Source: a phage
DNA: 56,145 bases
Sequence record: PZ386950.1
Direction: 5' to 3' (one strand)
A program made the translations under genes and the position numbers. Numbering within the stretch: the first letter of the stretch is position 1; each line of letters starts with the position of its first letter. The notes beneath the pieces were generated by a model. It was not told the DNA's origin and did no database searches. It saw nothing but the letters and a program-made list of their open reading frames with translations. This document shows, piece after piece, positions 3,875-47,017 of the stretch.

Positions 3875-5230
3875 ATGGCTGATCAACAATTCGAACAACT
3901 AGCCGTTGCCGGGTACAGTCGAACAGGCAACCAGGTAAACGACGATTTCCTTCCTAAGCTGAACGGTAAACAAGGCCGTCGTATTCTTCGTCAGATGGCT
4001 GAGAACGACGAAACGATCGGTGGTGTACTGTTTGCCATGAGCAGTGTTTATCGTTCTGTACAGTGGATTTTTGACCCGTCTGACAAAGATGATCCAGAAG
4101 CTATCCGTTATTCAGAATGGTTACAGGACGCTATTGAAAATAAAATGGGTGATCCGCGTGGTGCACTCCCGGATGATACCTGGTCCGCGTTCGTTCAGAC
4201 ATGGACAGACGTTGATGTATTCGGCTGGGGTTGGTATGACATTTGGGTGAAAGACCTTGATGATGGCACGGTGGGTATTGCCCGTCTGGTTCCTGTAGCA
4301 CCTGAAACGCTTGCTGGATGGGATATTGAAGAACCGACAGGTTATGTTCGTGGTATTTATCAACGTTCACCTAACCAGGGTACAACGACGTTAATCACGC
4401 GTGACCGTTCGCTTCATTTGATTTCAAGTCCGAATAAAGGTAACCCGGAAGGTTTATCACTGCTGCGCACAGCTTATCGCCCGTGGTACTACAAAAAAGT
4501 GAATATGGAAATCGAATCCATACTTGCCGAACGTGGTACAGGGTTCCCGGTAATTACTGTTAACGCAGATATTAAAAAAGCGGCTAATGATCCTAATGTT
4601 CCTGAACAACAGCGTCAGGCAGCACAGGCGATGATTGATAACTATGAAAACATCGTCGCTAATATCAAACGCAATGAACAATCAGGACTGGTGATTTATT
4701 CTAAACCGTATATCACGGGTTATGATAACGAAACAGGTGTTACCACGTATGGTGGTGAACAACAGGTGAAACTGGAATTCGTTACACCTAACCAGACCAG
4801 TTCTGTGGATATTGACCGGACGATTAAACGTCTGGATACCAGTATTGCCCGTGCGTTACTGGCAGACTTTTTATTTTTTGGCAGTTCGGGTAATACAAGT
4901 AATGGTGCTAACCTGGGTAATCGTACTGAACTGTGGATCCGCGCAATGCAATCACGTATTGATAGTATTGTAGAATGTGTTAATCGTCAGTTGATACCGC
5001 AGTTATGGTCGTTAAACGCATTTCCTGATGAATACCGCCCGTCGATTCGCGCCGGGTCAATCAGTAAAGACAGTATCGAAACGTTGACTACGGCACTTGC
5101 TCGTTTAGCACAAGCTGGTGCGCCTGTATTCCCGGATCCAGACCTTCAGGAATACGTATATAAAGAGGCGGGTCTACCTATTACGGGGATTGATAAAGCC
5201 GGAGACGGATTACCGTCTATTGACGACTGA
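3875..5230 (+). CDS. portal protein
   Basis: 451-aa ORF directly downstream of terminase region; size, acidic C-terminus and position typical of portal proteins. Confidence 0.8.
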   Translation: MADQQFEQLAVAGYSRTGNQVNDDFLPKLNGKQGRRILRQMAENDETIGGVLFAMSSVYRSVQWIFDPSDKDDPEAIRYSEWLQDAIENKMGDPRGALPDDTWSAFVQTWTDVDVFGWGWYDIWVKDLDDGTVGIARLVPVAPETLAGWDIEEPTGYVRGIYQRSPNQGTTTLITRDRSLHLISSPNKGNPEGLSLLRTAYRPWYYKKVNMEIESILAERGTGFPVITVNADIKKAANDPNVPEQQRQAAQAMIDNYENIVANIKRNEQSGLVIYSKPYITGYDNETGVTTYGGEQQVKLEFVTPNQTSSVDIDRTIKRLDTSIARALLADFLFFGSSGNTSNGANLGNRTELWIRAMQSRIDSIVECVNRQLIPQLWSLNAFPDEYRPSIRAGSISKDSIETLTTALARLAQAGAPVFPDPDLQEYVYKEAGLPITGIDKAGDGLPSIDD

Positions 5231-5611: not shown

Positions 5612-5956
5612 TCAGTTAACATACTTCGCGATTAGTTTATCACAGTCCTCGCGACAGGTAGCATACTTAAACAGGTCACTGGCTGCTTCTGCCCGGTAGT
5701 CAGTATCAATGGTGTAATGTTCATTGACATAGTTATAGGCTGCAAGGTAATTGCTGAACATCCCCGTGGTTACCACTTTCGGTAGTTCCCTTACGACCTT
5801 ACCGTTAAACAGATATGCGATTACCAGAATCAGACCACCGATCACAGGACTTGTGAGAAATGCGATAAAGAACCATGCACCAGGATTACGACCCGTTTGT
5901 TTGGCAACACCCGCGACAACCAGACAGAAAAGAATCCATAAAATAGTGAATAACAT
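5612..5956 (-). CDS. membrane protein
   Basis: 114-aa ORF; strong RBS AAGGAGG 7 nt upstream of ATG; two hydrophobic helices in N-terminal half. Confidence 0.6.
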   Translation of the reverse strand: MLFTILWILFCLVVAGVAKQTGRNPGAWFFIAFLTSPVIGGLILVIAYLFNGKVVRELPKVVTTGMFSNYLAAYNYVNEHYTIDTDYRAEAASDLFKYATCREDCDKLIAKYVN

Positions 5957-14334: not shown

Positions 14335-15354
14335 ATGAGTTACAAACAGAATTTTCGCGACGTTGGCGCACCAGATACATTCCTGTCTAACTTTTCTGTA
14401 AGTTACTGGCAGGATACATCACTGTTTGTCGGTACTCGTTATTTCCCGGTAGTTCCTGTTAATCAGGCTGCTGGTAAGTTTCTGACTTACCCGAAAGGTT
14501 ATTTCGGTCGTCCGGTTAACTCCAAACGTGCCGAAGATGGTGTTGCTAACACTATTGGTTACAAAACCAAAAACCAGGGTTACACCGTTGATGACGATGC
14601 GATCCGTATCTTCATTTCTGACAAAAAACGTGCAAACGTTCAGAACGGTCAGCAACTGGATATGGAAGCGTCTGCAGTAACCACAGATGCGTTACTGATC
14701 AACAAAGAAGTGGATTTTGCTGAAAAATTCCTGACCGCTGGTAAATGGGGTCTTGATTTCCAGGGCAAAGACGCGTCTCCGTCCACGGGCGAATTCCTGA
14801 AATGGTCTAATGCGAATGCCGATCCGATTGGTGATATCCTGTCACGTCGTGTTGCGTTCTCTCTGGCATCCGGTGGTCGTCGCTGGAATAAAGCACTGAT
14901 GACGCTGGACGTGTATGACGCACTGACCCGTAGTCCGGCTGTTATTGACCGCATTAATGGTGGTTCTACCACTCAGAATCCGGGAATCGTGACTAAACAG
15001 GCACTGGCTGCACTGCTGGAAGTTGACGAACTGGAAATCATGCAGTCCGTGGTCAACATGGCTGCTGATGGCGTTGAAGACGGTGATGGCAATCCGATGT
15101 CAGACTTCCAGTTTGCTAAAACTGGTGTGCTGATGCTCAACTATGTTGAACCGACTGTTGGTAACATGAAACCTGTTGCTGCTGCGGGCTTCGTGTGGAA
15201 CGAGTTCATCGATCTGGGTGTTAACAACGGACCGTCTATCCGCACCTATCCGGGTGTTGAAGGTCGCCGTGGTAATTTCGTTGAAGCGGAATTTGCCATT
15301 GATGTTCAGATGGTTGCACCTGACCTGGGCGTTCTATTCTACGACGCGGTTTAA
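14335..15354 (+). CDS. major capsid protein
   Basis: 339-aa ORF with strong codon usage, followed by a terminator; position after scaffold. Confidence 0.7.
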   Translation: MSYKQNFRDVGAPDTFLSNFSVSYWQDTSLFVGTRYFPVVPVNQAAGKFLTYPKGYFGRPVNSKRAEDGVANTIGYKTKNQGYTVDDDAIRIFISDKKRANVQNGQQLDMEASAVTTDALLINKEVDFAEKFLTAGKWGLDFQGKDASPSTGEFLKWSNANADPIGDILSRRVAFSLASGGRRWNKALMTLDVYDALTRSPAVIDRINGGSTTQNPGIVTKQALAALLEVDELEIMQSVVNMAADGVEDGDGNPMSDFQFAKTGVLMLNYVEPTVGNMKPVAAAGFVWNEFIDLGVNNGPSIRTYPGVEGRRGNFVEAEFAIDVQMVAPDLGVLFYDAV

Positions 15355-15373
15355 TAACAACTGTGGTATCATT

Positions 15374-15402
15374 AAGGGGTGGCTTATGCTGCCCCTTTTT
15401 TC
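15374..15402 (+). terminator. rho-independent terminator after capsid gene
   Basis: GC-rich imperfect stem aagggg...cccctt followed by ttttt. Confidence 0.5.
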
Positions 15403-15416
15403 ATGAGGTTAAAATC

Positions 15417-15770
15417 ATGCGTAATTCATATGACCCGTCACTGAAATATGTTTTCACCCGTCCGATGCTGTGGAACGGTAAACAGATGTCCGCTGGCGAT
15501 AAAGTATCAACATCAAAAGCTACCCCGGCTGTTTTAAATGCCCTTGTGCGTATGCGCCACATTGAACCAGCTACTGCGACCGTTGAAGAACCAGTGACTA
15601 TAGCAAACGAAGAATCGGCATCAACCACATCTGCTGAAATCCGACGTGATGCGCCAAAAACCTATAACGTTTATGTTATGGGTATGCCGATGAATTCAGA
15701 ATCGTTTAGTAGTAAAAGTGCCGCTGCTGAATGGTGTGAATCTCAAGGCTTGACATATAACTATTCTTGA
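15417..15770 (+). CDS. hypothetical protein
   Basis: ATG 15417 with RBS GAGG; 117 aa. Confidence 0.5.
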   Translation: MRNSYDPSLKYVFTRPMLWNGKQMSAGDKVSTSKATPAVLNALVRMRHIEPATATVEEPVTIANEESASTTSAEIRRDAPKTYNVYVMGMPMNSESFSSKSAAAEWCESQGLTYNYS

Positions 15771-15996
15771 CCTATTGTTAAGTCAGTGACAGAACTGCAT
15801 AGCAGACACTATCACTTAATCGGTCGAAAGACGCCGGATAAACGTAACCGGCACACAACAGGTAAGAGCATTGAGTTGTTTAAAGTGGTGCTGCGACGAT
15901 TATCATACATCTCAGTGCTCTTATCGTTGTGGTGAATTGCAGTTCTCAGAAACAACCAGAAGATAAGCGCCTGGCACTGCAACCAAACACTCGCTG

Positions 15997-16010
15997 ATAA
16001 GGAGGTGATC
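15997..16010 (+). promoter_or_regulatory. extended Shine-Dalgarno-like 14-mer complementary to 16S rRNA 3' end
   Basis: TAAGGAGGTGATCC is the exact reverse complement of GGATCACCTCCTTA. Confidence 0.5.
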
Positions 16011-16184
16011 CTTATCTTGCTGGCGGGAAAGCCGCAAATCGTGGGTAAAGCATGTTGTGAAACATCCTGAACTGCGTGTCGTTTTACATAACTGGTTATT
16101 CACGTGTCACGCATAGGGGTATGTTGGGACGTCAGGTGTGGATGACCAGTTATGTAAAACCCTCATTATCACCCAGAGCCATTT

Positions 16185-16210
16185 GCCGTCTGTTTAAGAC
16201 GGCTTTTTTT
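16185..16210 (+). terminator. rho-independent terminator
   Basis: stem gccgtct-gttta-agacggc followed by ttttttt. Confidence 0.7.
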
Positions 16211-16249
16211 CGTGCTAATATAACGAAAACATTTCTCACAGGTGATCAC

Positions 16250-16660
16250 ATGGCTATTACAGTTGAAGGTATTCGTTATTTGATCAGTGTCCCTGATGTT
16301 ACTGATGAACAAATTCAGTGGTACATTGACAACGGTTATACAAATCCTCTCAGTATTTGCGTTGCTCTCTGTGATTATATGGCGTCTATCGCCAGCAACG
16401 ATACTGATATTAAAGTAGGTCCGATCTCACTCAGCAGTAGTCAGTCAGCAGACGCCTGGAATAAACTTAAAAAAGATTTTATTTTACGTATTAATACTGG
16501 CGCTGATTCAGGTGGTGGTTTGTTAGGTAGTTTTATGGGTGTTGGTGGAGCTACATTAACTGGCGCTGGTATGCAACCTGCTATTCAACGTGGTCAGTTC
16601 GACAACCCACCTGTAACACTTGAAAGCGGTGGTCGTGCACTTAACGAGGGTGAACGGTGA
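16250..16660 (+). CDS. structural protein (head-tail region)
   Basis: track ORF trimmed to ATG 16250; glycine-rich C-terminus. Confidence 0.4.
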   Translation: MAITVEGIRYLISVPDVTDEQIQWYIDNGYTNPLSICVALCDYMASIASNDTDIKVGPISLSSSQSADAWNKLKKDFILRINTGADSGGGLLGSFMGVGGATLTGAGMQPAIQRGQFDNPPVTLESGGRALNEGER

Positions 16661-17034
16661 TGGCAGATAAACGTCAAAGTGTCCTGAACGGTGTTACTCG
16701 TGCACTTGCTGAAGTAGGTGAAGATTTAACGGTAAAACGTGTGACAACGGTTCCCAATCCATCAAACCCTACATTACCGGGCACAACCGTTACCGAATCA
16801 CATACCTGTCGTGGTTATATTTACCCATTGGAAAAATGGGATTCGACTACTATGACCCGAATAACCACGACGATGGTAATTATGGATAGTCAGAGTTTTG
16901 AACCACGATTTGTTCCTGATCGGGGTGATATTGTGGTTGATGAACGTGGTAAAGAATATCGCCTTCTTGATCGTCAAAACCCACGATTGTTAGGGGATGA
17001 TATGGCATTTATTCACCCTGTTGGAGCGGCCTGA
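16657..17034 (+). CDS. head-tail joining protein (putative)
   Basis: 125-aa ORF by position between capsid and tail genes. Confidence 0.4.
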   Translation: MMADKRQSVLNGVTRALAEVGEDLTVKRVTTVPNPSNPTLPGTTVTESHTCRGYIYPLEKWDSTTMTRITTTMVIMDSQSFEPRFVPDRGDIVVDERGKEYRLLDRQNPRLLGDDMAFIHPVGAA

Positions 17035-20278: not shown

Positions 20279-23194
20279 ATGGCACAATATCCTATTGATA
20301 TTAAGATTGACACCGGTTCGGCTGACCGCAATCTTAATAACCTTAACAGTCAGTTAGATCAGACTGAAAAATCAACCATAGCTGCTGCACAGGCTGCTAA
20401 TCAGTTATCTGAGGCTGAACAGCAGGTTGCAAAAGCAGCACAGCAACTGGCACAGCAACAAGCTAATCAGGCTGCGCGTACTATAGCAACTGCTCGCGCT
20501 ACTCGTGAAGCGGCAACAGCACAACTACAGCTTGAAAAATCACTTTCTGCATCTACTGACAACTTTCATGTTATTGCACGTTTACAGGCGCAAGTTAAAC
20601 AAGCTACTGAAGCTGAAACAAAAGCTACAGAACAATTAAAAAACAGTCTTAAACAACTTGTACCTGAACAGAAAAAAGTCATAGAAAATACTAAGCAGGT
20701 AGAAACCAGCACTAACAAAACAACAGGCGCTCTTGAAACACTTGTCACTGGTGCAAAAGCGTTTGTCGGTTTACAGATTGCAGGATCGCTTTACGACTGG
20801 GGTAAAGCCTTTGTAGATACTGCAACGAAAGTCGAACTGCTACAAAGTCGTATCAATCTGTACACATCAACGTCTGTCGAATCACAACAGATATTTGCGC
20901 AATTAGTACAACAAGCTAACCGTGCTGGTACAGATATTGACGCTGTGGCAAACAGTTTTCAGCGTTTTGCCGCTGCTGGTAAAGATGCCGGGATTAGTAA
21001 TCAGGTTATTTTACAGTTTACCGACAACCTGCAAAAAATGGCCCGTGTATCTGGTGCATCCAGTGCTGAAGCATCTGCGGCTATTTATCAATTATCACAG
21101 GCATTTGCATCTGGTCGTTTGCAGGGTGATGAATTCCGATCTGTGTCAGAACAGTTACCAACTGTTCTTCAGGTGCTGGCTAAACAGATGGGTGTCACCA
21201 CGGGGGAACTTAAACATTTAGGTTCTGATGGTGAAATTACCCGTGATAAACTGTTGTTGTTAAACAACGCGACTGATGAAATCAGCGCACAGTTCGATAA
21301 ACTTCCTCGTTCTGTAGATCAGTCTGCCACTGCGTTACGTAACAACCTGTCTGTGGCTATTGCTGAACTCGATCAGCAGATTGGCGCATCTAAATTCCTG
21401 GCTAAATTCCTGGACCTGTTAGCAGGTGGTGTATCGGGTACAACAGAGTTAATAAAAGCCGCTGCAGGTGCTGACAAACTGGCACAAGCCACTAACAATC
21501 TGAACAGTGTTACCGCAAAACGTGAAGCCAATCTGAAAGAAATTGCAGATCTGGAAGCACAAATTCAGCGTGGGTATACAACACAGTCAATTGGTGGGTA
21601 TACAAAATTTGTTGGTGACACCAGTGCTGCACAGAAGAAATTAAACGAACTTAAAAAACTTGATGTTCAGTTAACAAAACAACAAGCAGAAGCACAACGA
21701 GGGGTTGTTCAGGCTACTCCGTTGGGTAAGGGTGTTGCTGAAAATCTTGCAAATCAGGCAAGCACTTTACAGGCGAGTATTACGGCTGCTCAGGCTGCCG
21801 GACGTCCTGATGCCGAATCTGCAAAACAGATTAAAAATCTGAAAGAACAGATCACCTATACCCAGGCGCTTGCTGACGGTAACTATGAACTGGCAGCAAG
21901 TCAGAAACTGGGTAATAAAGCAACGAAGGAACAGATTGCAGACTACGCCGCGTTGTTGAAACAACAGGCAGAATATAAAGAAAATCAAAAGAACCAGAAG
22001 AAATCAGCCAGTGCTGAAGCATCTGCTGCTAAACGTGCACAGAAAGAACTGGAACGTAATCAGGCTGCTAACCAGAAATACCTGAAAACGCTTCAGGATA
22101 AAATCAATGCTGGTAATTATGATGTTCAGTTAGCACGCGAACAGGTTCAGATTGCTTTAACACAGGGGTCGTCTGTTGAACAACTTACAGCAACGTATCA
22201 GAAAGAATATCAGGTACGTCAACAGTTAACGCTGGCATCACAACAGGCAGAAGCACAATCACGACTGAATAAAGACGCGACTGATGCTGAACGTGCCGCT
22301 GTTGATGCACATGTGGCTGCATTGCAACGACAACAGCAGATAGCACAGTTAAGCGCAGATGTAAAACAAGTTGACATTGATGTGAAAGCACAGTTGAACC
22401 CGTATCAATCACAAATTGATCAGGTTAATCAACAGGAAGCAACACGTCTTAGTATTATTCAAACTGCCCGTGAACAAGATTTAATCAACGAGCAACAATA
22501 CCAGGATATGAAAACGCAGATTCAACAGGCTGGGGAACAAGCCCGTACGAATCTTGCAAACGCTAACTACAGCTTGTTGCTACAATCCAGTGCTGATTTT
22601 TTGGGTCAAATGGCTGCTGGTCTGGCACAATCTAAAGGTGAGCAATCAAACGCGTATAAAGCGATGTTTGCACTGTCTAAAGCCTTTAGTATCGCACAGG
22701 CAAGCATTAACCTGTGGACAGCAGTTAGCCAGGCTATGGCGTTGCCGTTCCCGGCGAATATTCCGTTCATTGCACAGGCTTTGTCATATGGAACAAGCGT
22801 GTTAGGTAATATTCAGTCTGTGGCTGCAACAGGTTTTGCAACGGGTGGTTATGTTAAAGGTCCGGGTACAGGTCAGAGTGACAGTATAAACGCACGTTTG
22901 AGTAATGGTGAGTTTGTCAGTACCAAACAGGCTACCAGTCGTTATCGTAGCACTCTGGAAGCAATGAATCGTGGGACATATACCCCCGGATCTGAAGGTG
23001 GTTCATCACCTAATATTCAGGTTCATAACTACGGTGGTGAACGTGTTCAGGTGAAACAAGGATTAACACGGGATGACGTAGTGCTTATCATAGGTGAAGA
23101 ATTCCCACGACAATCAGCGGCACAATGGAATGACCCGTACAGTCAGACAAATAAAGCGTTCAGGTCTAACTATGATGCGAACAGGAAAATATAA
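20279..23194 (+). CDS. tail tape measure protein
   Basis: 971 aa, long Q/A/K-rich coiled-coil N-terminal two thirds, location after chaperone pair. Confidence 0.85.
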   Translation: MAQYPIDIKIDTGSADRNLNNLNSQLDQTEKSTIAAAQAANQLSEAEQQVAKAAQQLAQQQANQAARTIATARATREAATAQLQLEKSLSASTDNFHVIARLQAQVKQATEAETKATEQLKNSLKQLVPEQKKVIENTKQVETSTNKTTGALETLVTGAKAFVGLQIAGSLYDWGKAFVDTATKVELLQSRINLYTSTSVESQQIFAQLVQQANRAGTDIDAVANSFQRFAAAGKDAGISNQVILQFTDNLQKMARVSGASSAEASAAIYQLSQAFASGRLQGDEFRSVSEQLPTVLQVLAKQMGVTTGELKHLGSDGEITRDKLLLLNNATDEISAQFDKLPRSVDQSATALRNNLSVAIAELDQQIGASKFLAKFLDLLAGGVSGTTELIKAAAGADKLAQATNNLNSVTAKREANLKEIADLEAQIQRGYTTQSIGGYTKFVGDTSAAQKKLNELKKLDVQLTKQQAEAQRGVVQATPLGKGVAENLANQASTLQASITAAQAAGRPDAESAKQIKNLKEQITYTQALADGNYELAASQKLGNKATKEQIADYAALLKQQAEYKENQKNQKKSASAEASAAKRAQKELERNQAANQKYLKTLQDKINAGNYDVQLAREQVQIALTQGSSVEQLTATYQKEYQVRQQLTLASQQAEAQSRLNKDATDAERAAVDAHVAALQRQQQIAQLSADVKQVDIDVKAQLNPYQSQIDQVNQQEATRLSIIQTAREQDLINEQQYQDMKTQIQQAGEQARTNLANANYSLLLQSSADFLGQMAAGLAQSKGEQSNAYKAMFALSKAFSIAQASINLWTAVSQAMALPFPANIPFIAQALSYGTSVLGNIQSVAATGFATGGYVKGPGTGQSDSINARLSNGEFVSTKQATSRYRSTLEAMNRGTYTPGSEGGSSPNIQVHNYGGERVQVKQGLTRDDVVLIIGEEFPRQSAAQWNDPYSQTNKAFRSNYDANRKI

Positions 23195-23697
23195 TGAGCA
23201 ATACAGATGATTTACCACGGCTTGAGTACGGCGCGAAAATGGTGTTACCTGAGCGTGATAATTACAGTTATAACCCGCCGTGGGGTGTAACTAAATCTGA
23301 TATTTCCGGGACGCTATCACGGTTAGGTCGTAGCGCCTTTGGTGGTCCTGCTCAGGTATCGTGTACAATTCAGTTATATAGTCCTGCGATGCTTCAGTGG
23401 TGGGACGATTTTTATAATCTGGAAATCGCTGAAGGTAGTAAGCGGTTTGTGATGCAACTGTTTGTGAACGGTTTGATTCAGGAACACGTTGTTCAGATTG
23501 TCAGTAACCCGTCGTCCTCTGTTGTAGGATGGAAAGGATCTGTCGATCTACAGTTGCAAGCTGTTCCTGTAATCGACCGTTGCGCAATGGCATCACGATT
23601 GTTAATCACTAAATGCCAGGGTGATTACGCTGCTTGTTACCTTAAAGAAATTATTGATACTGGCCTACTCTTAAATAACGCGTGGACACCAGAATGA
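23194..23697 (+). CDS. minor/distal tail protein
   Basis: 167-aa ORF immediately after tape measure gene. Confidence 0.55.
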   Translation: MSNTDDLPRLEYGAKMVLPERDNYSYNPPWGVTKSDISGTLSRLGRSAFGGPAQVSCTIQLYSPAMLQWWDDFYNLEIAEGSKRFVMQLFVNGLIQEHVVQIVSNPSSSVVGWKGSVDLQLQAVPVIDRCAMASRLLITKCQGDYAACYLKEIIDTGLLLNNAWTPE

Positions 23698-24200
23698 AAG
23701 ACGAACTGCGTGAATTATTAACGGTCGCAACAACTGGTAAAGGTGTTGTTGACGGTGTGAAACTGAATCATAGTTCATGGCCTAATCCGCTATACATCAC
23801 CAGTATTTATCCGGGATTTATCGCTGTACATGAAGACGGTAAGGAATATGAGTACGAATACGTTCCGATGTCCGTCAAGAAGGCGAATAAACAAAACGAT
23901 TTATCACAGGATTATTCATTCACCATTCAGGATCTGAATGAAGTTGTCGGTGTATATCTGGACTTAATTCCGCTTGACAGTAATGAAAAACCATCTGTTG
24001 AGTTACGAACATTTGTTTACCGTGAAGATGGTTCCATGTCTGATATTCAGGATGGGCCATATCTTCTGGAATCTGGTGACATTACTACCGAACCACAGGG
24101 TTGTACGTTCACAGCATCACCACCTATTACAAACTTCGCCGGGACAGGTGAATTATATACGTTCGAACGTTTTCCTACATTGCTGGCGTATGCAACATGA
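23694..24200 (+). CDS. minor tail protein
   Basis: ATG 23694 in ATGA overlap. Confidence 0.5.
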   Translation: MKDELRELLTVATTGKGVVDGVKLNHSSWPNPLYITSIYPGFIAVHEDGKEYEYEYVPMSVKKANKQNDLSQDYSFTIQDLNEVVGVYLDLIPLDSNEKPSVELRTFVYREDGSMSDIQDGPYLLESGDITTEPQGCTFTASPPITNFAGTGELYTFERFPTLLAYAT

Positions 24201-24556
24201 TCGGTGATCGCTACGATATTGATAAATGGAATTGTACACACGAGGTCAGTCAGTGGTATCAGGTGCACAATTACCCACACGTATTGAAAACTGTTTCAGG
24301 TGATGAATGGGATATTGCGTTTGTCAGATGGATGCGAAAACGTTTTTCACCAATTACCACACCGGAACAAGGCGCGCTTGTACTGATGAAGAACCGATAT
24401 TCAGGCGGTTTTCATGTCGGCGTGTGGGATTGTGGAATGGTTCATCATTGTTATCAGCCACCTGGTGATTCACCAGGACAGACAATCAGATCACCTTTAA
24501 GTATAATCAAGACAGCACATAAAGAAATCACGTTCTGGAGAATGAAAAGTGTCTAA
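24197..24556 (+). CDS. tail protein with Cys/His peptidase-like motif
   Basis: 119 aa with conserved Cys and His spacing. Confidence 0.45.
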   Translation: MIGDRYDIDKWNCTHEVSQWYQVHNYPHVLKTVSGDEWDIAFVRWMRKRFSPITTPEQGALVLMKNRYSGGFHVGVWDCGMVHHCYQPPGDSPGQTIRSPLSIIKTAHKEITFWRMKSV

Positions 24557-27080
24557 AGTCATTTATCACACTAATCCTGTTGAACACGCGGATAACGTTG
24601 ACTTTGGTGAATGGATGCTGAAACGCTGGCCCGTGGGTACAGTTCGTCCGCGTGGGTTACTGATTTATAAAAACGACGAAAACATTACCCAGAAATGGGT
24701 CACTGACCCCAGCGTATTAACTGATCCTGATGCTGTTTATCACATTTATGAATTACCAAAAGGTGGGGTGGTTAGTGCAATAACGAAAGTTATTAGCACA
24801 ATTTTAAACCCCGTTTTAAAATTGTTCATGCCGAATACCAGTGCGTCGGCTAATCTTAAGAACTCACGTTCAGCGTCGTCTAACAACGCGCTTCAGGGGC
24901 GTACTAATGCTTCACGACCGGGTGAACGTATTTCTGATATCCGCGGTCGTGTACTGGCATATCCTGACCTGTTAATGGACTACCGAATCTTCATTGACCG
25001 AACAGAATATGAAGTTCAGTTTCTGTGTCTGGGTGCTGGTGAATACGAAGTCGAAGATGTTCGTGATGGTATTACACCTGCTGTAAATATCAGCGGTGAA
25101 AAATTAGACTTTTATAAAAAAGGTAATGCACCAGGGTATGGTTCTCCATATATGAATATCGGTGGTGCAATTGATATTAACACTTTTCCGATCATGGTTG
25201 CTAAGTCATCGAACGAAGCAGACGGATCTGAAGTCAAGCCACCAAACTATGCTGATATCAGCAAAGCGAGTTTTAAAATTTACAGCACTGGTGAAATTGA
25301 CACTATGATTTCCAGTGATGATAACACTACGGTTGACTGGTCGGAACGTGCACCAATCGGTAGTAAAATTCGTTTATCACAATTTTACAGTTTTACACCT
25401 AATACTTTACCGTTAAACACGTATGTACGTAATGACCTATCCGGTGAATATGATGTTATTTATGCAGGTGAGAATACGTTAATCATTGATACTACTGGTC
25501 GTGAAGGTTGGGATGCTCTGTCTGAAAGTGGTCAGGCTGCGTATACACAGGCTTACTTGCGAAATGACGGTTACTGGGAATTTGAAACCACTGAAGGAAG
25601 TGGAAGTTTTTTATACAAATTTTCACCATCTCTTGACAGTACTATGCCGTATATTGTCGGACCTTATCTGATCGATAGTGCGGATAAGCTGATGATCAAC
25701 TTGTATGCGCAGAACGGTGTGTATAAAACTGATGGTGATATTTATCCGTTTACCTGTGATTTCCAGGTAGTGTTGTCAGATCCTAATGGTGTGAAAGCGA
25801 ATGTGACACACTCTATGTCTGTTCGTGGTCGTTATACAGAAGCCGTAGGTAATTCATTAATCGTGGACAACCCTTTTGATGGTCCTGTTAACGTGTCTGT
25901 AAGACGACTATCAAATACAGACAAAGATTTCGAAGGATCTGTTGTTGACAACATTAAGTGGCGCGATTTATACGCTATCACGAACGTTTCTCCGCGTTCC
26001 TATGGTGATGTGACATTGATCCATACAGTAACGAAAGCAACAAACGCGGCACTGAAACAAAAAGAACGTAAGCTAAATATGATTGCAACACGTGTGTATA
26101 ACGGTGTTGCAAGTAGTAATTTTGCAGATGTTGCAATGTCAATGCACACAGATTCTTTATTTGGTCGTCGCACATTAGACACTATTGATCGTGATGCTTT
26201 ATATGCTGTTCAGGCACAACTTCTTGAATATTTTGGTGACCAACGAGCAATTGAGGTTGGCTATACATTCGATAACAACAGTACGACGTACGAAGAAGGA
26301 TTAGACATCATCTGTAACACGGTGAATGTTAAACCATATCAGATTGGTAGTGTATTATATTTCTGGCCCGAATTACCACAGGATCAGTCAGCAATGCAAT
26401 TTGGTCACGCGTTTAAAATTCCTGACAGTGATAAACGCACACGTTCTTTTGCACCACCTAAAGAATACACTGGTGTTCAGGTTAAATACTTCGACCACGA
26501 TGAAAAATCATATTTATACGTAACTAAAGGTGAAGAAACAAACCTTAATAAGATAGACCTTGTTGCGTGTCAGTCGAGATATCTGGCTACAATTCGCGCT
26601 AATCGTGAAATGAATAAACTACGTTATCAGCGTATTACGCACGAATGCACCGCGCTTAGTATCGGGTTGCAGGCTACCCCAGGAATGCGAGTGGATATGA
26701 TTGATAATACGAGAATGAAACAACATGAAGGAGTGATCATCGATGTTGATGGTTTAGTACTGACATTAAGTGACCCTGTTGATTTTGTTACAGGTAATAC
26801 ATATTCGATCACGATAACCGGGCGTTTAGGTACGCTTGAAAACATCCCTGTTTCACCGGGCGATGATGAATTTACAGTTATTTTACAATCTGCACCAACG
26901 GAAGAAATTTACACAGGATGGTTACAGGATCGGACAAGTTATATTATCAGAACAGATGATGAACGTAGTAAGCTGGCGATGCTGGTACAGACTATGGAAC
27001 CATCAGGCGCTGATAACAACTATCAGGTGGGTTTAACGTGCATCAATTACGATGCACGTTATTATCAAGATGACGTTTAA
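24549..27080 (+). CDS. tail tip / host-specificity protein
   Basis: 843-aa ORF after minor tail genes; GTG start preceded by GGAGAA. Confidence 0.6.
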   Translation: MSKVIYHTNPVEHADNVDFGEWMLKRWPVGTVRPRGLLIYKNDENITQKWVTDPSVLTDPDAVYHIYELPKGGVVSAITKVISTILNPVLKLFMPNTSASANLKNSRSASSNNALQGRTNASRPGERISDIRGRVLAYPDLLMDYRIFIDRTEYEVQFLCLGAGEYEVEDVRDGITPAVNISGEKLDFYKKGNAPGYGSPYMNIGGAIDINTFPIMVAKSSNEADGSEVKPPNYADISKASFKIYSTGEIDTMISSDDNTTVDWSERAPIGSKIRLSQFYSFTPNTLPLNTYVRNDLSGEYDVIYAGENTLIIDTTGREGWDALSESGQAAYTQAYLRNDGYWEFETTEGSGSFLYKFSPSLDSTMPYIVGPYLIDSADKLMINLYAQNGVYKTDGDIYPFTCDFQVVLSDPNGVKANVTHSMSVRGRYTEAVGNSLIVDNPFDGPVNVSVRRLSNTDKDFEGSVVDNIKWRDLYAITNVSPRSYGDVTLIHTVTKATNAALKQKERKLNMIATRVYNGVASSNFADVAMSMHTDSLFGRRTLDTIDRDALYAVQAQLLEYFGDQRAIEVGYTFDNNSTTYEEGLDIICNTVNVKPYQIGSVLYFWPELPQDQSAMQFGHAFKIPDSDKRTRSFAPPKEYTGVQVKYFDHDEKSYLYVTKGEETNLNKIDLVACQSRYLATIRANREMNKLRYQRITHECTALSIGLQATPGMRVDMIDNTRMKQHEGVIIDVDGLVLTLSDPVDFVTGNTYSITITGRLGTLENIPVSPGDDEFTVILQSAPTEEIYTGWLQDRTSYIIRTDDERSKLAMLVQTMEPSGADNNYQVGLTCINYDARYYQDDV

Positions 27081-27081
27081 T

Positions 27082-27345
27082 CTAAACATCATCTTCAACA
27101 GCGCTGGAAAATTTTTCCAGCGTTTTTAAATAATTATAAGCCTGAATAAAAGGGTTATCCCCCATAATGTCATAAGGGCATTCGTACTGTTCTGAATACA
27201 ACTCTTCTATCTCTTCTTTATTGGCAAAAAATCTAACGCCAAAAGATATAATTTGTTTATCACGAATGATGGCTGGCATGTTAACCCTGGCCACGCCCTG
27301 TGCCACGGTAAGACCACGAAAACTGATAGGTAAAATCAACGCCAT
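27082..27345 (-). CDS. putative tail fiber assembly/chaperone protein
   Basis: ATG 27345 with GGGGG RBS directly downstream of tail fiber gene on same strand. Confidence 0.4.
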   Translation of the reverse strand: MALILPISFRGLTVAQGVARVNMPAIIRDKQIISFGVRFFANKEEIEELYSEQYECPYDIMGDNPFIQAYNYLKTLEKFSSAVEDDV

Positions 27346-27356
27346 AAATCCCCCTA

Positions 27357-29783
27357 TTACCACGCAGCGACGGCAACGCGCCGCCATGTGTTAGTTGCTG
27401 TGCAAATATAAAGATAAGAGCCATCAGAAGCCCATTGCCCCTCCTGGCCTCCAGACGTTGCTGTTGCTGGGACTGGCACCTTCATGGAAAAAATATACCC
27501 ATCTGTAGCAGAAGCAGGCTCTGAACCTGGTTTATATAGAATCCCTACTGAGCTTTTGAAAAGCCAGCCTTGCCCCCACTGAATTCTACGTCTGTCGTAT
27601 GCTGGCTGTGTCGATGACTTTGTTCCAATAGCAAGATCGCTCTCTATTTTATACGGACCGGAATAGCTGCCAATGTTAATTGCGTTTTTAAGGTCGTGCG
27701 GGCCGATACAAATGCGACCAGAAACGTTGGAAGTCGACGTGTTAACGGAATAAGCAAGTCCGGGAAAGTCTTTAAGGTTTAAGACATCAAGATTGTTGAT
27801 GTTCTGAAAATACAGTGTTGTATCCGTCGAGACGGTTGAATAGTTAACGCCATCAATAATCCGCACGTCGTTGCCGACCGTTACCGCCCACGGGCCTGAT
27901 GCCGACCCCGCAATACTAATACACCGCCCCGCGTTTTTATCGTCGGCTTTGCGGACCGTGGGAATGAGGTCCAGATACTGAGGCCCGGTTACCTGTATGA
28001 AATTTGCGTCTACGGTCATTTTCGACCGGATAGGGTTTCGAATAAAAACACCAAAGTCGCAAGTCATTTCGGCAGTAAAATTAACAAGTTCATACAAACG
28101 GCTATCCGCGCCGCCGTGTGAGTTTGATAACGAACCGCCTTTAATACCATCAAGCCAGATCCCCAGACCGCCACGGTCCTTCCCTGTGCTTATCCCGGAG
28201 AAATGCACATTACGGCCCCAGTTGTAATATGGGGTGAAGAGGAAGTCTACATAGAAGCCGTTAATGGATTGTGACCCTGAAGAGATCCCGTAGTCGGTGG
28301 CGACCACGCCATCAACCGTACACTCGATAGGACTCATCATCTTAAATGCGGCGTTGTCCGTTGTGCCGGTAGCGCCAGACGTTACGATATTGTCAATCGT
28401 CATCCTGCGAGCATAAGTGAAGCTCATCGCGCTCGGAGTGGATGCCGTAACGATACAGTCCCCGAAGTTACCTGCGTAAGAGTAATCGTTAATGCTTCGA
28501 TTAAACCGGCAGCCTTTCACCTGCAGCGACGTTATCGCCCTGAGCTGTAAAACGTCAAAATTCGCATTCAGAATATTAAGTTTATTAAGGAACGCGGCGG
28601 GTACGATAAACGGATCGCCAAAGGCGGTAACCAGAGGGTCCTCTAAAACGAGCTGGGAAGCGCTGGCGGATTTAACCCGGGAATGTTCAAAATAGACGGT
28701 CCCGGAGTTAACGGAGTCTGTTCCGGTAATGTTTTCGAAGCGTACAACGTCACCAGCTGAAAATGCGCTGAAATCGCCGGTGATAGTTGTCGTCCCTACC
28801 GCCAGGGTGCCAGAGTATTTTACAAAAGTAGTTTTACTAATCACAAATTTATCAAAGGCAAAACGTAGCCCATCGGCGATAACCAATTGTGAAGAGTCAG
28901 CTGAAACTACAGTTGAGAAATGTATACCAATCTGATTTATACTACCATTGAATGCGGTATCTGCGGCTAGTTCAATTACAATCTTATCACCGGGACTATA
29001 CGCAGAAAAATTACCAGGAAAAGTTGTAGTACCTACAGCATAAGTTGTATAATCATTAACAGTACCAACAGTTACAGAATTAGTACGAGTTTTTAATATA
29101 TCGCCTTTTATGACAACAAAACCGCTGATAACACCAGGACCAGTTAGGTTAAGACCACCTCTGGAAAATACAAGGCCGTCCCAATTGACGTTAATATCTA
29201 CTACTGCTTGCTTATTGTTATCTATGCAGTAATTTAAAAAAGTGGTCGCTAATGCAGCCTCGTTTCCAGAACCTGTAAAGCCAAAAGATGACGCTGTAAC
29301 AGACGATAACCCGCCAACCATCATAGCACCGTTTACTGATGCCAGTTCCTGGCGTAAATTAGCATCACCAACACTCACCATATGAGTAACATCAGTTGCC
29401 CACGATGTACTATTTGTACCCGTGGTTGTGTATGGTGGAGTTGTGGCCGCGTTTAATCGCCAGAATTCATTCTGATAACGAATAATCTGGTTACGAGCTG
29501 CAATTGTGTATGGTCCGTTTTCATAATCTCCCAGGAACTGATACCCAGAATTTAAAAGGAATTGCTGAAAACGTGCTTCTTTATCAGCCTGAGCATCCTG
29601 AAACTGAGTCTCCATACCATCAAGTGTCAAGTTCGTTACTTGCTCACCGCGAATGGTATCAGTTACAGTTAACGCATGTGCACCGTTAGCATCTTTACTT
29701 TTAGCCACATGTTCTATGTGCTGGACTGCTTGTTTACCTGTTTTAAGGTCGTCAGCACTGATATAATCACTGCAGTTAGCCAT
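27357..29783 (-). CDS. tail fiber / tailspike protein
   Basis: 808-aa ORF; G/T/S/N-rich repetitive central region consistent with beta-helix; encoded opposite to the rest of the tail module. Confidence 0.65.
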   Translation of the reverse strand: MANCSDYISADDLKTGKQAVQHIEHVAKSKDANGAHALTVTDTIRGEQVTNLTLDGMETQFQDAQADKEARFQQFLLNSGYQFLGDYENGPYTIAARNQIIRYQNEFWRLNAATTPPYTTTGTNSTSWATDVTHMVSVGDANLRQELASVNGAMMVGGLSSVTASSFGFTGSGNEAALATTFLNYCIDNNKQAVVDINVNWDGLVFSRGGLNLTGPGVISGFVVIKGDILKTRTNSVTVGTVNDYTTYAVGTTTFPGNFSAYSPGDKIVIELAADTAFNGSINQIGIHFSTVVSADSSQLVIADGLRFAFDKFVISKTTFVKYSGTLAVGTTTITGDFSAFSAGDVVRFENITGTDSVNSGTVYFEHSRVKSASASQLVLEDPLVTAFGDPFIVPAAFLNKLNILNANFDVLQLRAITSLQVKGCRFNRSINDYSYAGNFGDCIVTASTPSAMSFTYARRMTIDNIVTSGATGTTDNAAFKMMSPIECTVDGVVATDYGISSGSQSINGFYVDFLFTPYYNWGRNVHFSGISTGKDRGGLGIWLDGIKGGSLSNSHGGADSRLYELVNFTAEMTCDFGVFIRNPIRSKMTVDANFIQVTGPQYLDLIPTVRKADDKNAGRCISIAGSASGPWAVTVGNDVRIIDGVNYSTVSTDTTLYFQNINNLDVLNLKDFPGLAYSVNTSTSNVSGRICIGPHDLKNAINIGSYSGPYKIESDLAIGTKSSTQPAYDRRRIQWGQGWLFKSSVGILYKPGSEPASATDGYIFSMKVPVPATATSGGQEGQWASDGSYLYICTATNTWRRVAVAAW

Positions 29784-29810
29784 CTTTTAACCCTCGTGGG
29801 AGTGTGAACA

Positions 29811-30134
29811 ATGTCCGATAATCCGGTATTGAAATATTGGCCTATTATAACATTTATTGCAACGGGTGCGGTAGGTTTTGGCGTACTCCAGCAACAGGTT
29901 AACGCAACGGCTAAAGATGTAGCTGACGCAAAAGTAAACGCCACCAACGCCTATAACCTCGCAAAACGTATTGAATCTCGTGTTGATGTACACGATGTAA
30001 AGTTAGAGTATCAGGCTGTTCAAAATACTCAAATCCTTTCCAGCGTCAAAGAACTTACCCAGTCTACTAACGATCTAAAAGTCGTTATTGAAGGTCTTAA
30101 AAATCAACGTCGTACAGAAGGTGAAACAAGATGA
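29811..30134 (+). CDS. holin-like protein (single TM helix plus coiled coil)
   Basis: N-terminal hydrophobic helix WPIITFIATGAVGFGVL; ATGA overlap with endolysin gene. Confidence 0.45.
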   Translation: MSDNPVLKYWPIITFIATGAVGFGVLQQQVNATAKDVADAKVNATNAYNLAKRIESRVDVHDVKLEYQAVQNTQILSSVKELTQSTNDLKVVIEGLKNQRRTEGETR

Positions 30135-30691
30135 GCACAGGCAACGTATCTGTTGATAAAATCATTGATACAACTATTGGTCACGAAGGAGGTTATTCAA
30201 ATAATAGCGCCGATCGTGGTGGTGCAACAATGTGGGGCATTACTGAGACTGTAGCACGTGCACACGGATACAAAGGTGATATGCGTTTATTACCACGGGC
30301 AACCGCTGTAAGCATTTACGAGGCTGATTACTGGTTTAGTCCTCGTTTCGATCTGGTACAACAAGTTTCACCGCTAATTGCCGCTGAACTTTTTGATACT
30401 GGTGTTAACATGGGGCCATCAGTTCCGTGCAAGTTTTTTCAACGGTGGCTGAATGTCTTCAATAATCAGCAAAAACTTTACCCTGATTTGATCGCAGACG
30501 GTCAAATCGGACCGCGAACTATTAATGCTCTTAAACAGTATTTAACCACCCGTGGTAAAGATGCTGAAAAAGTCATGGTGCGTGCGTTGAACTGTTCACA
30601 AGGTAATCGTTATCTGGAACTGTCAGAGGCACGGGAAGCGAATGAAACGTTTACTTATGGTTGGTTACTTAATCGCGTGGGGTCACTCTGA
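30131..30691 (+). CDS. endolysin (GH108-like N-terminal domain with peptidoglycan-binding C-terminal domain)
   Basis: GHEGGYSNNSADRGGATMWGIT matches the GH108 motif E-G-G-Y...D-x-G-G-x-T-x-x-G-I as I recall it. Confidence 0.75.
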   Translation: MSTGNVSVDKIIDTTIGHEGGYSNNSADRGGATMWGITETVARAHGYKGDMRLLPRATAVSIYEADYWFSPRFDLVQQVSPLIAAELFDTGVNMGPSVPCKFFQRWLNVFNNQQKLYPDLIADGQIGPRTINALKQYLTTRGKDAEKVMVRALNCSQGNRYLELSEAREANETFTYGWLLNRVGSL

Positions 30692-30933
30692 TGGATATGT
30701 TCAGCATGTTTCGTAACGCAGCGGGTGGTATCTCGTTAAGCCGTGCGCAGGCTGCGCTGGGGTTCCTTGTGGTAACCGGGATCCTGATTTACCAGGCAGT
30801 CGATCAGACATTAGATAACACGGTTCTGTTAACGTACTTCGGTTTTTGTATCGGTCAGTATGTTGGCGCTAAGAAAATTGCCGTTGATAAGGATATCAAA
30901 GAACAGAAAATTGATGCGGGGTTAAACCCATGA
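30691..30933 (+). CDS. holin (two TM helices)
   Basis: 80 aa with two hydrophobic helices and charged C-terminus. Confidence 0.55.
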   Translation: MDMFSMFRNAAGGISLSRAQAALGFLVVTGILIYQAVDQTLDNTVLLTYFGFCIGQYVGAKKIAVDKDIKEQKIDAGLNP

Positions 30934-31328
30934 CTATTCGTAGCATTGCCATTACAGCGGTCGCACTTTTACTGGCTTTAGCGGCAGGTGGTATAACCTG
31001 TTACAAGGCTGGATATAAAGCGCGATTGAATGAAGAAAAACAGGAAAAGTTAAATGATGCACAACAGGAACAGTTGCGTTTAAAAGCACAGCAACAGTTG
31101 GCAGATAACGTTTTACGTGGTCTTGCTGACTGGTCACAAAATACTAAAATCGTGGAAATTCGTCATGAAAAAACTAATACTGTTTTTCGTAATGAGTGTC
31201 TTACTCCTGAATATCAGCGCCTGTACAACGAACGAGTTACCGAAGCAGAAAGCCGTTTATCAGGCCGCATTAGTTCAGAAGTGTCAGACCGAAAACCTTC
31301 CACGGCTGAACGGTCTGACAGGAAGTGA
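30930..31328 (+). CDS. i-spanin (Rz-like)
   Basis: N-terminal TM helix then coiled coil; contains nested o-spanin ORF. Confidence 0.65.
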   Translation: MTIRSIAITAVALLLALAAGGITCYKAGYKARLNEEKQEKLNDAQQEQLRLKAQQQLADNVLRGLADWSQNTKIVEIRHEKTNTVFRNECLTPEYQRLYNERVTEAESRLSGRISSEVSDRKPSTAERSDRK

Positions 31329-31413
31329 TTCAACAGATGTTAATGACAAGTGGTTAGATATTTATTTCAAATGTGCAACTATTCACAACGCATTAGTAGA
31401 CAGTCTTCAGTAA
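31165..31413 (+). CDS. o-spanin (Rz1-like lipoprotein), overlapping i-spanin in +1 frame
   Basis: MKKLILFFVMSVLLLNISAC lipobox; ORF starts inside the i-spanin gene and extends past its stop. Confidence 0.7.
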   Translation: MKKLILFFVMSVLLLNISACTTNELPKQKAVYQAALVQKCQTENLPRLNGLTGSDSTDVNDKWLDIYFKCATIHNALVDSLQ

Positions 31414-31626
31414 ATCTTCAACCGATACTTCAATCCACGATGCGGGAACCGGATATTCAGTCCGGTACATGAACAAGGATGTTCCTATCAACCCGTGTGG
31501 ATCTGTTTTAATCCCTCGCATGTTCAACAACGGAAAAAACTGTTCGCGTGTTTGTGGCAATCGTGCAAAGCGTCCTGTCGGGCGTTTAGCAGGATCCATA
31601 GGGTTGAATTCAACGATTGTGGACAT
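31393..31626 (-). CDS. hypothetical protein
   Basis: 77-aa ORF at end of minus-strand replication operon. Confidence 0.45.
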   Translation of the reverse strand: MSTIVEFNPMDPAKRPTGRFARLPQTREQFFPLLNMRGIKTDPHGLIGTSLFMYRTEYPVPASWIEVSVEDLLKTVY

Positions 31627-44196: not shown

Positions 44197-44404
44197 GTTC
44201 GGTGCTGTAATCAAAAAAGAAGACCGTTATGCACATATTGACACCAGGATTACCTGGGTTGATATCAGTGAAGCTACTCTGTTCAGTTCAACTTACATGG
44301 CTGGTGTTGCACTTAAAGCACTTCGTGATCAAGGTTTCAATTGTAAAAAAGTAACAATCGCGCCTGTTAAAATCACGCGGATCGTCGAGGAGACAGAAGG
44401 ATGA
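44189..44404 (+). CDS. hypothetical protein
   Basis: 71-aa ORF, ATGA overlap downstream. Confidence 0.45.
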   Translation: MTEFGAVIKKEDRYAHIDTRITWVDISEATLFSSTYMAGVALKALRDQGFNCKKVTIAPVKITRIVEETEG

Positions 44405-45860: not shown

Positions 45861-45894
45861 TAGCCTCAGTTAACATACATGAGGCTAAACACAA

Positions 45895-47003: not shown

Positions 47004-47017
47004 GAAGGAGACTAGTT

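Follow-up and report, generated by a model that had tools for sequence, protein, structure and literature searches.

The late leader of lambdoid phages, which runs from PR' through 6S RNA and tR' into an untranslated leader, is the site where Stx phages carry transfer RNAs (tRNAs), stx genes and anti-small RNAs (anti-sRNAs). In phage T4, the stable species 1 and 2 RNAs, whose function is unknown, are co-transcribed with the phage tRNA cluster. Shine-Dalgarno (SD)-like 5' stabilisers are known from the cryIIIA STAB-SD and from phage SP82, whose polypurine stabiliser is made by RNase III cleavage in Bacillus subtilis. Here we describe a 479-bp gap in 56,145 nt of DNA from a Sashavirus/9NA-like siphovirus (sequence record PZ386950.1; this whole stretch is referred to as the window), which a preliminary description had presented as a structured noncoding island containing a perfect 14-nt complement of the 3' end of 16S ribosomal RNA (rRNA).

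In the concept of Juhala and Hendrix, as cited in PMC4104026, a moron is an extra transcription unit with its own promoter and terminator in a late operon. Other RNAs at the lambdoid moron site are the anti-sRNAs of enterohaemorrhagic Escherichia coli (EHEC) (PMC4104026) and the Pas small RNAs (sRNAs), and the put RNAs of phage HK022 are cis-acting antiterminator RNAs (PMC9378689). The unit in the window resembles phage morons in lying between two conserved head genes with its own promoter-like site, terminator and variable content; it differs from them in that its cargo is RNA only, with no protein gene and without the tRNA found in the related phage Carvaje. It is highly probable that the gap is a conserved, structured, noncoding unit of shared modules. 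The whole of our reading, in which this noncoding 'RNA moron' has a core that would dock the 30S ribosomal subunit and act as a stabiliser, we put at a probability of about 50%.

A predicted transcription unit between two head genes

A BLAST search with positions 15300-16700 showed 98% identity to Escherichia phage KarinMuster_Bas82 and the Salmonella phages Sasha, Sergei and Solent. The upstream open reading frame (ORF) has its stop codon at 15768-15770 and the ATG of the downstream gene lies at 16250, so the gap extends over 15771-16249 (479 bp), as originally delimited. It is flanked by two head genes, the upstream coding sequence (CDS) being the gene next after the major capsid gene. The placement of the gap inside the structural region was correct, but incomplete as a description, since the gap has its own conserved promoter-like site (Table 1). 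Transcription is predicted to start near 15785; the promoter is kept in 8/8 aligned phages of the Sasha, 9NA and Carvaje types, and the depositors of AVIO78A annotate a promoter at the same place. At the other end, the terminator (GCCGTCT-GTTTA-AGACGGC followed by T7) was found exactly where it had been reported. It lies 40 nt upstream of the next late gene and is annotated as a terminator by Sasha's depositors. The five ORFs of the gap (21-60 amino acids (aa), both strands) had no Pfam or PHROGs match at E<=0.1, in keeping with the earlier view that none of them is credible.

The RNA predicted between these signals (15786-16212, ~425 nt) has a minimum free energy (MFE) of -154 kcal/mol and z = -5.8 against dinucleotide shuffles. 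Fold prediction and a covariation search in related phages had been proposed as checks. The former indicates a strongly structured RNA and the latter revealed covariation in several modules; together with the conserved promoter/terminator bracket, they support in silico the proposal of a small structured RNA.

The gap was aligned among eight phages of three genera, namely Sashavirus, Nonanavirus (9NA and SP-062) and Carvajevirus. Three parts were constant, the promoter, an 80-nt core that opens with the anti-16S sequence, and the terminator, and the middle was mosaic. Across the three genera (9NA, SP-062 and Carvaje compared), identity was 92-96% in the core and 95-98% in the terminator, but 76-88% in the flanking CDSs. 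The unit of 9NA consists of the promoter, a short 5' part, the core and the terminator, without the long hairpin that we call M2; between promoter and core, PDP46 has 83 bp and PJ16 275 bp more, and Carvaje has ~380 additional bases in the slot, including an annotated tRNA-Ser. The marks of a moron, that is, its own promoter, its own terminator and content that varies between relatives, are thus all found in silico. It had been held that a normal gene in the slot of a related phage would refute the idea of a noncoding island; the slots hold tRNA-Ser (Carvaje) or extra RNA modules, and no conserved protein gene was seen in them, the short hypothetical CDSs annotated in PJ16, PDP46 and Carvaje lying outside this check. 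Judged from the alignment, the unit of the window is of the same kind as the tRNA-bearing units, such as the Carvaje slot, minus the tRNA.

Table 1. Predicted features of the noncoding unit, in positions of the window
Feature	Position	Strand	Basis or remark
Sigma-70-type promoter, TTGACA-17 nt-TATTGT	15750..15778	+	Overlaps stop codon of upstream CDS; 10/12 consensus positions
M0, 5' hairpin with CUGC-AUA-GCAG	15786..15815	+	MFE and centroid folds
M1, two small hairpins	15821..15852	+	~90% identity to unannotated stretches of other phages
M2, long hairpin, base stem ~19 bp, variable apex	15854..15931	+	Fold, covariation
M3, hairpin, stem CCAG/CUGG (15956-15959 with 15971-15974)	15938..15981	+	Cross-phage similarity
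TAAGGAGGUGAUCC, exact complement of the 16S rRNA 3' tail	15998..16011	+	Sole exact copy in the window
Core motif	16000..16079	+	Covariance model R1, 52 bits, E about 5e-13
M5, long hairpin with the inverted repeat as its base	16082..16159	+	Predicted fold
Intrinsic terminator, GCCGUCU-GUUUA-AGACGGC then U7	16185..16210	+ only	Terminator scan

The core motif and its SD-like stretch

The core of the window comprises, in order, the 3' part of the SD-like stretch, the linker UCUUGCUG (16015-16022), the hairpin H1 (GCGG-GAAAG-CCGC, 16023-16035), the dinucleotide AA, and the helix P2 (CGUGG with CUGCG, 16040-16044 with 16072-16076), which encloses the hairpin H2 (AUGUU-GUGA-AACAU, 16052-16065). The covariance model R1 was built from 18 prophage copies in IMG/VR, with the window sequence excluded, H1 being RCGG-GNAAG-CCGY and the H2 loop GNRA. 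In the family as a whole the motif measures ~80-105 nt and shows the same layout, an SD-like strand, a conserved linker, H1 with a GNAAG loop and P2 around H2 with a GNRA loop; the GNRA loops and the junction nucleotides are conserved. In an alignment of 84 distinct members, 98.4% of the cells were paired, against 18-43% in controls slid by 1-3 columns, and 11 of the 15 pairs change on both sides (212 compensatory cells). Which strand of the core is transcribed follows from a conserved tandem U.G/G.U in P2.

The core was also found in CF-SP1 (Swiduovirus), in Jedunavirus myophages, where baseplate genes on the other strand enclose it in a 560-nt gap, and in the Proteus P22-like phage Brookers, where a DUF2560 gene comes directly after it. 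Among the matches listed, the pattern TCTTGCTGRCGGGNAAGCCGYAA occurred in more than 120 IMG/VR contigs as 94 distinct variants. In species-representative genomes it gave 21 matches, 20 in Enterobacterales and one, likely by chance, in Pseudomonas; the Enterobacterales with a core include Enterobacter, Yersinia, Serratia, Pantoea and Citrobacter. Prophage cores lie between the lysis cassette and the terminase, most of them with an ATG start codon 74-90 nt after the linker, and the cores of temperate phages lie 12-27 nt upstream of the start codons of diverse accessory genes. The genes that follow prophage cores are mutually unrelated and encode small proteins of unknown function, Rha/Ant-type regulators, an HNH endonuclease, the small terminase subunit or an HslV-like peptidase. 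The core was found neither near M2 copies nor in lambda 44300-48502. A putative second copy in the window (5749-5829, - strand, 17 bits) lies within a 114-aa ORF (5612-5956, -), pairs poorly and was judged a chance match.

The 14-mer reported as an exact complement of the 16S rRNA 3' end, TAAGGAGGTGATCC, is indeed present, one base to the right of the place given for it. The next best sites in the window carry 3 mismatches, and ~4e-4 exact copies would be expected in 2 x 56,145 positions. All 14 nt are exact only in the 9NA/Sasha lineage. Elsewhere in the family the commonest contiguous identity is 7 nt (GGUGAUC), and the stretch takes forms such as AAGGA(U)GGUGAUC, AAGGCGGUGAUC, GUGAGGUGGUC and GGAGGUGAUC, a mismatch or bulge being allowed. 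Against the 13-nt 16S tail, the predicted duplexes have a median energy of -18.4 kcal/mol, compared with -5.8 kcal/mol for random windows of the same loci; the energies of 97% of 97 distinct cores are lower than the 1st percentile of this background, and the window and the 9NA lineage, at -22.1 kcal/mol, form the family minimum. As the P2 and H2 stems vary freely in the same sequences, SD-likeness itself must be under constraint. In the 14-mer, a conserved SD-like stretch takes its perfect form, which is specific to one lineage. The family-wide 16S complementarity makes some SD-like activity plausible, and a ribosome-sequestering role, as suggested earlier, is possible on these data.

In the window, MFE and centroid folds place the 14-mer within a local hairpin of 8 bp (GAUAAGGA-GGUGA-UCCUUAUC, 15996-16016); in the family, the SD-like stretch usually pairs with an upstream C-rich strand under a GNRA cap. 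An alternative hairpin between the SD-like strand and UCUUGC of the linker was rejected as not conserved, because UCUGGCUG variants lose it. We also noticed that GGTGATC occurs 18 times in the whole window, against 5.7 expected, a number reached in 0/100 shuffles. One of these sites, at 16241-16247, serves the gene with its ATG at 16250 as ribosome-binding site (AGGTGATCACATG). The excess suggests that the phage often uses SD sequences shifted toward the GAUCACC part of the 16S tail.

Additional observations were made beside the core in single phages. In the Klebsiella phage BUCT_49532 (our locus L019, 640-1221), the place of M2, which precedes the core in other Jedunavirus phages, is taken by an HNH endonuclease gene whose end coincides exactly with the 5' edge of the core; homing endonuclease genes may use such islands as landing sites. 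In CF-SP1 (L006, 1812-1982), an unannotated hydrophobic ORF of 56 aa (MKIYHALNAATLFLLVMSVLGW...), with an SD sequence and a terminator behind it, lies downstream of the core and had no PHROG match.

The lambda late-leader hairpin M2

The base stem of M2 pairs CACAAC-A-GGUAAGAGCAUUG with CAGUGCUCUUAUC-GUUGUG, with a bulged A and a small internal loop; as whole arms, CACAACAGGUAAGAGCAUUG and CAGUGCUCUUAUCGUUGUG form ~19 bp. The arms that define M2, AACAGGTAAGRGYR and YRCYCTTWYCGTTGTG, were found in the window at 15854-15931 and in lambda at 44789-44862 (490-563 in our locus L283). The lambda copy is situated directly after tR', the terminator of 6S RNA, in the untranslated late leader upstream of S, and nothing is annotated at 44789-44862 in RefSeq or Rfam. 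Many other M2 copies immediately follow a lambda-type tR' terminator, the identity of which was settled against the lambda sequence.

The arm pattern was present in more than 120 IMG/VR contigs among the matches listed, to which the counts in this paragraph refer. All of the 75 distinct variants fold with the arms paired. The apex is hypervariable, with 58 different inserts whose stability is not unusual. Of 126 instances, 32 have tRNAs within 1.5 kb, and these tRNAs lie on the strand of M2 in 75/75 cases; 15 tRNAs end 5 nt before the M2 pattern and four start at its 3' end. The ban/tRNA operon of P1 contains several M2 copies, and M2 abuts tRNA ends in P1 and in prophages. The stem covaries: GAGCA/UGCUC changes to GGGUA/UACCC in P1 and to GAACA/UGUUC in Carvaje, and ACAAC/GUUGU to CUAUC/GAUAG in the second Carvaje copy. 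The 3' arm reads CAGUGCUCUUUCCGUUGUG in lambda, with the boxA-like UGCUCUUU; in P1 the boxA-like strand is replaced by UACCCUUA and the 5' arm compensates.

The position of M2 in lambda after tR' and its tie to tRNAs identify it as a conserved element of lambdoid late leaders and phage tRNA units. The predicted stem of 18-19 bp with a bulge, an internal loop and an apical helix has RNase III-type geometry (about two turns of double-stranded RNA). Because of this helix length and because it brackets variable or tRNA-derived inserts, M2 looks like a double-stranded processing stem.

Some M2 apices contain sequence like the T arm of a tRNA, for example GGTTCGAATCC. In three IMG/VR prophages (L186, ~4304-4388; L190, 13703-13786; L232, 4523-4606) the apex has GGGTTCGAATCCC and an acceptor-like strand, as if the conserved stem had once bracketed a tRNA. 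Another shared noncoding block, GATAGTTTTCGT..GGCGACTTTGCGG..TTTTTAGAAACTGACCACAAAGATAAATGCAAACGA, follows some M2 copies and was seen in PJ16 (L003, ~1480-1760), in Carvaje (L015, ~1025-1290) and in L174 after 908. The 275-bp insertion of PJ16 is this block, and a CDS of 146 aa is annotated there on the opposite strand.

Further modules, their spread and neighbouring features

When the gap was used as a BLAST query, short blocks of 80-97% identity were found in unannotated stretches of many phages, namely Shuimuvirus and Swiduovirus siphoviruses, Vi1-like Klebsiella phages, P1 and P1-like phage-plasmids, and the P22-like epsilon34. We read the RNA of the window as a chain of mobile hairpin modules, each of them shared with unrelated phages. 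In Shuimuvirus and Swiduovirus the blocks lie in a noncoding island of 450-700 nt between structural genes, on the opposite strand to them and with its own strong promoter-like site and terminator; two of these islands are co-oriented with tRNA-Ser and tRNA-Arg ~250 nt downstream. In P1 they occur in the ban operon leader and adjoin tRNA-Asn and tRNA-Thr, the annotated plp being on the other strand. The noncoding islands with tRNAs are those of Shuimuvirus and Carvajevirus; in those of Jedunavirus and Swiduovirus, none was seen. The Vi1-like Klebsiella phage Madison (L009, 545-3528) has ~3 kb without an annotated gene and with M1 and M2 copies at two places; ARAGORN found no tRNA there, and the stretch may be a large noncoding RNA region.

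In M0, AGAACTGCATAGCAGAC is kept in Carvaje, and 9NA has CTGC-GTT-GCAG. M1 consists of M1a (GGUC-GAAA-GAC(G)CC, with a GNRA loop) and M1b (GCCGG-N10-CCGGC), next to which stands the C/A-rich CACACAAC; it is ~90% identical to stretches of Shuimuvirus/Swiduovirus and Vi1-like phages. As read from the sequences, the M1a stem covaries, UC/GA changing to CA/UG in CF-SP1, and the loop is GAAA, GAGA or GACA.

The loop of M3 is the conserved 11-nt AAGAUAAGCGC (15960-15970), and its outer helix in the window is UGCAGU/ACUGCA. M3 is 81-87% alike in P1 and P1-like phages, where it comes after M2, and in the PL leader of epsilon34, where it is placed just upstream of an N-like gene. The sequence of the outer helix differs by lineage but its complementarity is kept, which is suggestive only.

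The inverted repeat reported earlier is real, with its arms at 16085-16096 and 16145-16156, shifted by 1 and 4 nt from the positions given. It is perfect over 15 nt (16082-16096 with 16145-16159) and forms the base of the longer predicted hairpin M5. In the alignment, M5 is an indel of 78 nt, present in Sashavirus only and absent from 9NA, SP-062 and Carvaje. By direct reading, its G-rich loop resembles a stretch immediately upstream of the Shuimuvirus tRNA-Ser.

Protein genes have been annotated over conserved RNA modules in P1 (plp; L008, 1901-2278), in 9NA (gp42; L002, 2572-3117) and in ZCEC13 (small CDSs; L016, 959-1271). The P1 plp, the extended 9NA gp42 and the ZCEC13 CDSs are probably annotation artefacts, lying on the opposite strand or extending an N-terminus through the terminator. 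An N-terminal extension of the gene downstream of the gap, as annotated in 9NA and PDP46, was rejected as a coding reading, as it crosses the terminator and a 22-nt indel in 9NA interrupts its frame. Upstream of the gap, a strong intrinsic terminator (10-bp stem, then a T-run; 15374-15397) stands directly 3' of the major capsid gene, so the small post-capsid gene (~15417-15770) sits between two terminators. The terminator at 15374-15397 is likewise annotated in Sasha and AVIO78A.

Discussion

We propose that transcription would proceed from the predicted sigma-70 promoter and give an RNA of ~425 nt ending at the intrinsic terminator. M2 would serve as an RNase III-type processing stem that releases or punctuates the RNA, much as host rRNA is bracketed by double-stranded processing stems. 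The core would dock the 30S subunit by way of the 16S 3' tail, with no translation being initiated, and the docked core may then protect the RNA from 5'-end-dependent decay as a roadblock or stabiliser, or offer a standby platform to the sequence downstream. This model fits the retention of an SD-like stretch without a start codon, the position of the core immediately upstream of diverse genes in late operons, and its co-occurrence with a candidate processing stem. Taken by itself, the docking and stabiliser mechanism is tentative, with the odds rather against it. Slightly more doubtful still is that the core represents an undescribed class of phage RNA, in which a conserved three-helix scaffold captures 30S by pairing 11-14 nt of the 16S tail with no start codon. 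If this were true, the core would be a portable ribosome-docking module moved between genomes, protecting or boosting the RNA that carries it, and in lytic phages, acting as a free sRNA, it could draw host ribosomes away.

Several points weigh against our reading. The promoter is a consensus match only, and late-operon transcripts could simply run through the island. Recent horizontal transfer, and not selection, could explain why the core is so alike across genera, and the covariation figures come from an alignment fitted to the model, the seed of which had been selected for in-register pairing. Only helix length points to RNase III cleavage of M2, and the 3' arm of M2 also resembles boxA (UGCUCUUA), the NusB/NusE site, for which a single-stranded UGCUCUUUA-like sequence is expected. 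Predicted ensembles leave about half of the SD-like stretch paired (accessibility ~0.46), and in the window it lies mostly inside the 8-bp hairpin, which would hinder 30S binding. In addition, 9NA-like phages have no gene between core and terminator, so that a purely cis role upstream of a gene is not obviously applicable to them.

Of the other explanations, a coding one can be set aside almost entirely. The SD-like sequence might drive a short leader peptide, which in the window would start at UUG 16017 and have 17 aa (MLAGKPQIVGKACCETS) and in most relatives would read MLTGKP; the SD is very strong, lies 5-6 nt upstream of the UUG, and a short ORF follows it in every member from the first pattern. 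When cores were collected with an H1-anchored pattern independent of the start codon, however, the UUG had become UGG or CGG in 10/13 of them and the SD-like stretch persisted. The residue changes (Thr to Ala, Pro to Leu) track the pairing in H1, where CGG/CCG to CAG/CUG gives Pro to Leu, the stop codon is lost whenever the closing pair of H1 is G-C, and no Pfam or PHROGs family matches. Since neither start codon nor mini-ORF is conserved across the core family, the earlier suggestion of a translational enhancer for a tiny peptide is close to refuted. A better case, though still an unlikely one, can be made for a trans-acting regulatory or decoy sRNA whose processed modules bind host RNA or protein, for example as a GcvB-type sponge through the C/A-rich CACACAACAGG, as a CsrA or Hfq sponge, as a mimic of antitoxin or CRISPR RNA, or by sequestering 30S. 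The layout is that of an sRNA, with its own promoter, a structured body and a terminator with a U-tract, and in the reduced unit of 9NA the core would be the constant 'gene product'. The majority form of the core, as read from the sequences, contains CAAGGAUG, which we take to match the CsrA core obtained by systematic evolution of ligands by exponential enrichment (SELEX); GGA is nevertheless missing from some core variants. The M2 stem takes up CACAAC in base pairs in 75/75 variants among the matches listed, ribosome sequestration would demand very high copy numbers, and the cores of temperate phages are embedded in late messenger RNA just upstream of genes and form no separate sRNA gene. 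Prophage anti-sRNAs that sponge GcvB do share the lambdoid late-leader moron site with M2 (PMC4104026), but AgvB, AsxR and all other Rfam families are without a match.

The unit could also be a promoter-proximal leader or attenuator of the downstream head-completion and tail genes, comparable to lambda PR'-6S-tR', in which a constitutive promoter yields a short terminated RNA until a phage factor permits read-through, the modules being antitermination or anti-Rho elements. A promoter followed by an intrinsic terminator 40 nt before the next late gene is what such a device would need, lambda has a homologue of M2 directly after tR', epsilon34 has M3 in its PL leader, ahead of an N-like gene, and the 3' arm of M2 contains a boxA-like sequence. 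That strand is, however, paired in every predicted fold and covaries away from boxA in P1, and the islands of Shuimuvirus, Swiduovirus and Jedunavirus are antisense to the flanking structural genes and so cannot be their leaders. A put-like antiterminator was likewise rejected, there being no R1 match in HK022 21000-33000, an early region expected to hold the put sites, whose exact positions were not located, so that the test is one-directional. We regard a leader or attenuator as improbable, somewhat more so than an sRNA. Least probable apart from the peptide is an inert remnant, that is, a scar of repeated gain and loss of tRNA and moron cassettes in which the conserved blocks are recombination linkers. 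The highly mosaic content of the slot, the many combinations of modules in unrelated phages, the tRNA fragments within some M2 copies and the HNH endonuclease gene abutting the BUCT_49532 core would all suit it. Strand-specific covariation with conserved G.U pairs is unexpected for DNA linkers, though, and co-orientation of M2 and tRNAs by 75 to 0 among the matches listed, the conservation of GNRA loops and junction nucleotides, and a core and terminator better conserved than the adjacent protein genes all argue against it. On balance we favour the noncoding RNA moron with a 30S-docking core.

Known RNA families gave little to connect with this unit. With Rfam 15, the whole window had 0 matches at the gathering threshold, and 15650-16350 at E<=10 gave chance-level matches only (microRNA models on the M2 hairpin, suhB and STnc560); Rfam had nothing for the majority core form or for the lambda late leader. 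ARAGORN found no tRNA or transfer-messenger RNA in the window. Other likenesses, judged by inspection, were also set aside: that of the core to the 36-nt ToxI antitoxin repeat amounts to short shared words, with no Rfam match; that of GGAUAAACG in M1 to the type I-E CRISPR repeat handle is lost in relatives, which have GGACGCG; that of CAAGGAUG to a CsrA site fails because GGA is not universal; and for a hammerhead-like CUGA... the conserved hammerhead core is absent. RefSeq has nothing annotated at sites equivalent to the core and M2. In the full-text literature on 9NA, Sashavirus, the P1 ban operon and put, and with the literal module sequences, no description was found; subscription journals were outside this coverage, and an older description of the lambda late-leader hairpin may exist.

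The core is a common unannotated motif, with more than 120 viral contigs among the matches listed and prophages of many Enterobacterales genera. As it keeps an unusually strong SD-like sequence where there is no translation start, it would offer a test case for uses of SD sequences other than initiation. The hairpin next to lambda tR' is widely shared and travels with phage tRNA genes, with an invariant base stem and a hypervariable apex, and would thus provide a handle on the expression, processing and exchange of phage tRNA and noncoding cassettes. Automatic pipelines leave such islands empty or fill them with spurious small ORFs, as with P1 plp, the extended 9NA gp42 and hypothetical proteins.

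Among the described systems, the put RNAs of HK022 are similar in being multi-hairpin RNAs of ~70-100 nt in a phage leader that need no dedicated phage protein; the core, unlike them, is mostly far from promoters, in late operons, and R1 did not match HK022 in the region searched. With species 1 and 2 of T4 the unit shares the character of structured noncoding RNAs in phage tRNA units, presumably processed together, and no relationship in sequence or structure is expected. The lambdoid late leader is closer, as M2 of the window is the lambda hairpin and tRNAs abut M2 in prophages and P1. The unit of the window, in contrast, lies in the head-gene cluster of a lytic siphovirus and not after a Q-dependent promoter, and its core is absent from lambda 44300-48502. 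Finally, the cryIIIA STAB-SD and the SP82 stabiliser are short, unstructured, Gram-positive and directed against 5'-3' exonucleolytic decay, whereas the core is a multi-hairpin element of enterobacterial phages for which stabilisation is putative; it shares with them a strong 16S complementarity, the lack of a start codon and a candidate double-stranded stem upstream.

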